From NCBI GenBank assembly GCA_050944875.1, contig JBMNRW010000002.1:1009-65008 (forward strand): a stretch of DNA of 64,000 bases, in the 5' to 3' direction. Below the pieces are notes generated by a model, which was not told where the DNA came from, made no database searches, and saw only the letters and a program-made list of their open reading frames with translations. How positions within the stretch are numbered: position 1 is the stretch's first letter; every line of letters begins with the position of its first letter. Position numbers and translations under genes: made by a program. Below are positions 29,222-30,673 of the stretch, in pieces. The stretch is from Patescibacteria group bacterium (GTDB lineage: Bacteria > Patescibacteriota > UBA1384 > JACPKC01).

Positions 29222-30673
<1,452 letters not shown>

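Follow-up and report, generated by a model that had tools for sequence, protein, structure and literature searches.

The stretch of DNA analysed here (64,000 nucleotides, hereafter the window) has a G+C content of 63% and was found to encode the housekeeping proteins LigA, GatCAB, S2, EF-Ts, PyrH, RRF, ProRS, TIM, GAPDH, PGK, trigger factor and ClpP, together with a single set of rRNA genes. The EF-Ts ORF (13037-13666) is only 209 aa in length, which is short by comparison with bacterial EF-Ts at about 280 aa. The rRNA operon (29221-52540) is split, running from the 16S through a ClpB-like AAA+ gene, tRNA-Ile, tRNA-Ala and approximately 13.7 kb of other genes to the 23S and 5S, and the 16S is flanked by a processing stem of its own, with a promoter-like site before it and a hairpin after it. 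The features of this region are as follows:

28942..28970, + strand: promoter-like site TTGACA-17-TATACT, 5' of the 16S, 11/12 consensus positions (a consensus match only)
29159..29173, + strand: 5' arm of a processing-stem inverted repeat, 15 nt, 100% complementary to 30743-30757
29221..30672, + strand: full-length 16S rRNA gene, 1452 nt (Rfam RF00177, 1466 bits, model positions 1-1533)
30743..30757, + strand: 3' arm of the processing-stem inverted repeat, perfect partner of 29159-29173, the arms bracketing the 16S
30770..30799, + strand: 13-bp perfect hairpin, terminator-like, with a weak T tail, ~100 nt past the 16S 3' end
31656-34433: ClpB-like AAA+ gene, between the 16S and tRNA-Ile
34728: tRNA-Ile
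35563: tRNA-Ala
37230-37946: SAM methyltransferase
37939-38613: FeeM-like N-acyl amino acid synthase
38585-40882: 7TM histidine kinase
40794-41306: response regulator
41421-49058: 2545-aa protein with Ig-like and CarboxypepD_reg domains
49379-52363, + strand: 23S
52424-52540, + strand: 5S

Rfam RF00177 matched the 16S without truncation, scoring 1466.2 bits where the gathering threshold is 50, and the measured length of the gene agrees with the approximately 1.45 kb given in an earlier sequence-only reading of this DNA. Positions are given in E. coli numbering, obtained by global alignment to K-12 rrsH (1542 nt, L123), with which the gene shares 69.6% identity over the alignment. Relative to rrsH, 92 nt are deleted, at 70-91, 197-211, 452-476, 1129-1144, 1437-1443 and 1462-1467, the last two deletions corresponding in the alignment to the tip of helix 44. 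The same alignment places the decoding-centre nucleotides G530, A1492, A1493, C1402 and A1518/A1519, all of which are present. The 3' end reads ...GGATCACCTCCTTTCT, with the anti-Shine-Dalgarno CCUCC intact. A shortened 16S was also encountered in E. coli SWYHX138.33gt (L121; NZ_CP091836.1, 1798480-1799999), where an annotated copy is 1520 nt long against 1542; its 22-nt deficit lies 5' of position 500 and may be an assembly artefact.

With regard to the neighbouring genes, several other CPR genomes (L017, L036, L043, L081, L089 and L109) also have a ClpB-like gene, co-directional with the 16S and 0.8-2.5 kb 3' of it, the products sharing 42-47% identity with that of the window. An exact-product look-up of the window's ClpB-like ORF returned no match, the uncertainty of its true start codon being the probable cause. 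The region 36000-49100, between tRNA-Ala and the 23S, has a G+C content of 49-57% compared with about 63%, and looks like an acquired island within the rRNA operon.

The 515F / 530-loop site had been placed at 29735-29760 by the sequence-only reading. However, that interval lacks the motif, reading gcccgtaggtggctttgttcgttccg and falling at roughly E. coli 577-602, and the site actually lies about 62 nt upstream, within the following features:

29658..29703, + strand: helix 18 (E. coli 500-545), from the Rfam consensus structure, the E. coli alignment and pair counts
29663-29665 and 29682-29684, + strand: pseudoknot strands 505-507 and 524-526, canonical and the same as in E. coli
29673..29694, + strand: 515F / 530-loop site GTGCCAGAAGCCTCGGTGATAC (E. 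coli 515-536), single exact match
29680, + strand: A522 (E. coli: C), 5' partner of 522:527, from the covariance model and E. coli alignment
29685, + strand: U527 (E. coli: m7G527), 3' partner, A:U with A522, from the model, alignment and pair counts
29690, + strand: G532 (E. coli: A), from the alignment; recurs on A:U and C:G backgrounds

Just one copy of the 22-mer GTGCCAGAAGCCTCGGTGATAC is present in the window, against an expectation of 0 from shuffled sequence. Its three substitutions, named earlier as C522A, G527U and A532G, retained that numbering on alignment to K-12 rrsH. The proposal that two of them compensate each other was likewise borne out by a covariance-model alignment: Rfam RF00177 pairs 521:528 and 522:527, and in the window it labels the latter a standard pair with compensation, C-G having become A-U with pairing kept. 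At position 532, on the other hand, the model flags a simple consensus mismatch.

Two of the three changes have been catalogued previously. The 16-mer GTGCCAGAAGCCTCGG, spanning 515-530 with A522 and U527, matches the window exactly at 29673-29688 and was tabulated as specific to OP11/WS6/OD1, for which a dedicated primer, Bac4 530F GTGCCAGAAGMMTCGG, was designed (Nunoura et al., 2012; PMC4103545, Table 1 no. 10). This OP11/WS6/OD1 variant is identical to the window over 515-530; however, that survey ends at position 530 and is silent on A532G, and the window lineage (63% GC, about 90% 16S identity to the nearest assemblies) lies outside the named groups. A natural compensated swap of the same pair also exists in the Nanoarchaeota, whose 530F site GTGGCAGTCGCCACGG carries U522:A527 (PMC4103545, Table 1 no. 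15), although this is in another domain of life, in the opposite pair orientation and with an extra change at 518.

The distribution of the pair was surveyed in a genome scan (one genome per species) which demanded a non-canonical base at both 522 and 527. A522 was found with U527 in 118 of the 119 matches listed, representing at least 118 species-level genomes. The hosts of these are overwhelmingly CPR/Patescibacteria groups (Daviesbacteria, Woesebacteria, Collierbacteria, Curtissbacteria, Paceibacterota, Berkelbacteria, Saccharibacteria-labelled groups and WS2 among the matches listed), plus TM6, and the full triple variant occurs in at least 12 loci of the matches listed. The one remaining match, G522:C527 (L024), was a chance match outside any rRNA and was discarded. 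Given these recurrences, the non-A532 sequences of the scans and the OP11/WS6/OD1 entry, the earlier description of the site as universally conserved was overstated.

A second scan, of metagenomes, left 522 and 527 free and demanded a non-A base at 532. Among its 120 matches the 522:527 states were C:G in 109, A:U in nine, U:G in one and C:C in one. A522 and U527 thus always appeared together (9/9) and never singly (Fisher p ~1e-13, with phylogeny ignored). In a 52-column helix 18 alignment of 62 distinct sequences, the pair was C:G in 53, A:U in seven, U:G in one and unpaired in one, and the helix 18 structure as a whole stood far above shuffled and slid controls. Ten of these 62 sequences have a non-standard first pseudoknot pair; U505 faces an unchanged C526 (alignment A1, columns 9/30) in many, e.g., L171, L209, L226 and L240, and also in L026, its carriers including A:U-type TM6-like sequences. 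In seven metagenome contigs (L124, L146, L164, L176, L181, L192 and L233) the 530-loop motif has U532 or C532 and lies within a strongly divergent, AT-rich flank, CGGTTAAATTTT...CTTGGAAGCG; these failed the 16S-flank check and are guessed to be organellar small-subunit rRNA.

Taken on its sequence, the window 16S is very probably a functional rRNA gene whose helix 18 is in a state typical of its lineage, this being the best explanation of the observations. Position 527 bears on how such a state may have arisen. The earlier identification of G527 as the m7G site of RsmG is confirmed in the literature, in which loss of the enzyme that makes m7G527 leaves the ribosomes mildly hyper-accurate and the cells resistant to streptomycin at a low level (PMC9054591). 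The modification is had by most non-CPR bacteria, and across the more than 15,000 genomes of one survey rsmG was present in over 90% of non-CPR and in under 10% of CPR genomes (PMC12641178). The MBE paper says nothing of rsmC or rsmD. In the window, the guanine required of an RsmG substrate is absent, U standing at 29685. As a U at 527 cannot be N7-methylated, the lineage would do without RsmG and m7G527. No GidB/RsmG domain (Pfam PF02527) was detected among the ~50 ORFs scanned, a subset of those in the 64 kb.

It is probable that the CPR-wide loss of rsmG relaxed the constraint holding G at 527. The base would then have been constrained by pairing alone, so that a compensated swap could become fixed. 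The two-base-pair stem under the 530 pseudoknot would in this way have been swapped from C522:G527 to A522:U527 with its fold kept. The change of A532 to G is a second, independent polymorphism. We infer that the loss of rsmG came first and the swap second. Since most CPR without rsmG still have G527, the loss would permit the swap and not force it. The closest experimental parallel, rsmG (gidB) null mutants, shares with the window the lack of m7G at 527; however, the base in these mutants is still G and C522:G527 is unchanged, whereas the window has U527 with its partner co-changed. By analogy with them, the window ribosome is predicted to be slightly hyper-accurate and to confer streptomycin resistance at a low level (PMC9054591).

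This phenotype leads to the alternative that A522:U527 was positively selected, for intrinsic streptomycin/aminoglycoside resistance or for decoding accuracy, and is not the product of neutral compensated drift. Streptomycin contacts the backbone at 526-527, and streptomycin-resistant Mycobacterium tuberculosis carries 530-loop mutations, position 522 included. Both facts count for selection, as do the effects of rsmG deletion with its loss of m7G527 (PMC9054591) and the recurrence of the variant in many lineages living closely with other microbes. Resistance mutations, however, typically break the pair which the swap preserves, and the retention of G527 by most CPR lacking rsmG implies that removal of the methyl group needs no base change. 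Selection is therefore considered unlikely.

Were the three substitutions one co-adapted set, A532G would be tolerated only with A:U. A non-A base at 532 does occur in 17 of the 118 listed A:U genomes (12 G and 5 C), a seemingly high rate, given that the position has been called universal (PMC9014874). This idea is nevertheless very unlikely, being essentially refuted by the metagenome scan, in which non-A532 matches are far more often C:G (109) than A:U (9), and by individual sequences in both directions, L048 combining A:U with A532, and L180 (79.5% identical to the window) combining C:G with G532. The 109 canonical matches are divided by position 532 into 50 with G, 51 with C and eight with U. 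That 109 of 120 non-A532 matches are canonical C:G indicates that 532 varies independently of the A:U swap.

A decaying, non-functional rRNA copy collecting substitutions at conserved sites could be suspected from the shortness and low identity of the gene relative to E. coli, the alteration of the highly conserved positions 522, 527, 532, 966 and 1207, and the 18.7 kb which separate the 16S from the 23S, but such a copy is barely credible given the whole-model match at 1466 bits, the compensated changes at paired positions (522:527 and 1051:1207, with further helix 34 pairs by eye), the intact decoding-centre nucleotides and anti-Shine-Dalgarno end, the presence of promoter-like site, processing stem and hairpin, and the conservation of the same states in L013 and L169, both of which are about 90% identical to it. 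Neither is the distance to the 23S unusual, unlinked 16S genes being the norm in the group, with 27 of 30 listed loci lacking a 23S within 4.5 kb. When the 30 listed loci of A:U type that extend 3 kb or more past the 16S were tallied, the 16S 3' ends being placed by motif anchors, a ClpB-like gene came first in five, the 23S lay within 4.5 kb in three and neither was seen in 22.

It had also been held that the substitutions are real and not errors, and the identical triple variant in two relatives upholds this. Among the matches listed, the closest is L013 (61.5% GC), which has 90.6% 16S identity over the 712 nt available, the A/U/G triple, and the same upstream gene order as the window, namely trigger factor (60% identity), ClpP (85%), HAD hydrolase and then 16S. 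A JGI metagenome contig, L169, carries the A/U/G triple at 89.6% over 1342 nt. The next-nearest relative beyond this ~90% group among the matches listed, L048 (labelled Patescibacteria group), has 87% identity over 771 nt and the A:U pair but A532. A metagenome scan using a lineage-specific flank (...GCGCTATCC...), with 522, 523, 527 and 532 left free, gave zero matches. An error of assembly or consensus, or a 16S chimera on the wrong contig, might be suspected because metagenome assemblies often break or become chimeric at rRNA genes and because two Logan contigs of the same run (L001 and L122, SRR31066179) end at ~29453 inside the 16S, before the 530 loop. This is scarcely tenable: two of the three changes compensate each other, the 22-mer with its flanks recurs in L013, L169, at least 11 further genomes and five further metagenome contigs, L122 independently runs from the HAD gene into the 16S, covering its first ~230 nt, and a perfect processing stem surrounds the gene. 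With the triple variant common to three independent assemblies at roughly family-level divergence, the error hypothesis is disposed of, short of reads, and is close to refuted, the sequence comparisons pointing to an inherited variant.

The sequence comparisons assign the source, with moderate confidence, to a CPR-affiliated (Patescibacteria), high-GC bacterium that is sparsely sampled. The basis for this is 16S similarity to genomes as labelled by their submitters, of which some labels are plainly unreliable (that of L013 being doubtful), plus one protein marker. The 16S is 78.6% identical to that of WS2. For ribosomal protein S2, the best named homologue is from Candidatus Berkelbacteria (60%), the lone informative name near the top, with closer homologues (95 and 73%) in Logan assemblies only. 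Since TM6, which is non-CPR, shares the A:U pair, the variant alone is no proof of CPR membership. CPR- or TM6-type 16S genes were also seen under discordant titles (L005, L008, L010, L007, L101 and many others), such as 'uncultured Pseudomonadales', 'uncultured Gammaproteobacteria', 'Candidatus Methylomirabilis sp.', 'Clostridia bacterium' and 'Candidatus Nanoarchaeia archaeon', and the labels or binning of these MAGs look unreliable.

The consequences for primer binding were evaluated in silico. The window site mismatches both the Caporaso and the Parada version of 515F at three bases, namely primer positions 8, 13 and 18 of 19, the last of which adjoins the primer 3' end, in agreement with the earlier suggestion of under-amplification by 515F. 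Primers 27F, 341F, 806R, 926R and 1391R match the 16S perfectly. Against a criterion of at most one mismatch per Earth Microbiome Project V4 primer (515F/806R), the window therefore fails at 515F, with 0 mismatches at 806R. With these three mismatches, standard V4 amplicon surveys should, on in silico grounds, miss or under-count the organism. The problem is recognized, as only 19.6% of Patescibacteria are perfectly matched by 515F/806R according to a published in silico figure (PMC10943839). Degeneracy was added for Patescibacteria at positions 8, 11, 12, 13 and 18 in 515F_Mod, GTGYCAGMAGBNKCGGTVA (Hu et al., 2024; PMC10943839), and a V4-EXT primer, GTGYCAGMMGBNKCGGTVA, followed in 2026 (PMC13271367). 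In both, M, K and V stand at primer positions 8, 13 and 18, equivalent to 16S 522, 527 and 532, and by eye the window site has no mismatch to either. These are, however, primer designs and hold nothing on structure, modification or function. The three changes are thus a catalogued CPR-type signature already built into revised primers; they are known, and are genuine but ordinary. The window adds one more concrete case of 515F/806R surveys being blind to CPR-type bacteria, for which corrective primer sets exist already.

Position 532 has a structural context of its own. According to published work, A532 is universal and pairs with G1206, which in turn forms a wobble pair with U1052; this A532-G1206-U1052 triple joins helix 18 in the body to helix 34 in the head and is the only non-covalent 16S link between them (Noller et al., 2022; PMC9014874). 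Compared with this triple, the window has the same G1206 and U1052 but a G at 532. The relevant positions, with other altered sites, are as follows:

30125, + strand: A966 (E. coli: G), from the E. coli alignment
30210, + strand: A1051 (E. coli: C), pairing with U1207 in helix 34, where C:G has again become A:U with compensation
30211, + strand: U1052, unchanged member of the 532-1206-1052 triple, read directly from the sequence
30349, + strand: G1206, unchanged tertiary partner of 532, from the sequence, the triple being from PMC9014874
30350, + strand: U1207 (E. coli: G), from the E. coli alignment

Further compensated pairs were seen by eye in helix 34, at 1048:1209 and 1056:1204. The E. 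coli residues at 966 and 1207 are m2G966 and m2G1207; of the three guanines methylated in E. coli (527, 966 and 1207), none is G in the window.

The states of 532 and 1206 were compared in 131 16S sequences from two scans (loci L002-L243), clusters being taken at 85% identity. This sample is biased by the search patterns and takes no account of phylogeny, which makes any 532:1206 covariation a lead only. A532/G1206 was present in 43 sequences (18 clusters), G532/G1206, the commonest alternative state in the sample, in 41 (16 clusters), C532/U1206 in 29 (three clusters) and G532/A1206 in four (three clusters). A few apparent exceptions proved to be register shifts from indels. These counts suggest that 532 covaries with 1206 in the published head-body triple. 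In the window, G532 would still face the unchanged G1206-U1052 in helix 34, and the head-body contact is probably retained in an altered form.

It is tempting, though rather unlikely on what the sequences offer, to suppose that lineages with a variant 532 may decode and translocate with a re-engineered latch between head and body, and that the 530 loop of the window, which also has the unmethylatable U527, could differ measurably in fidelity or aminoglycoside sensitivity. The natural variation of A532 and its apparent covariation with 1206 form the sole part of these observations that might interest a ribosome specialist. For the 522:527 pair, the window illustrates how a "universal" rRNA site may drift by compensated swap once its modification enzyme is gone.
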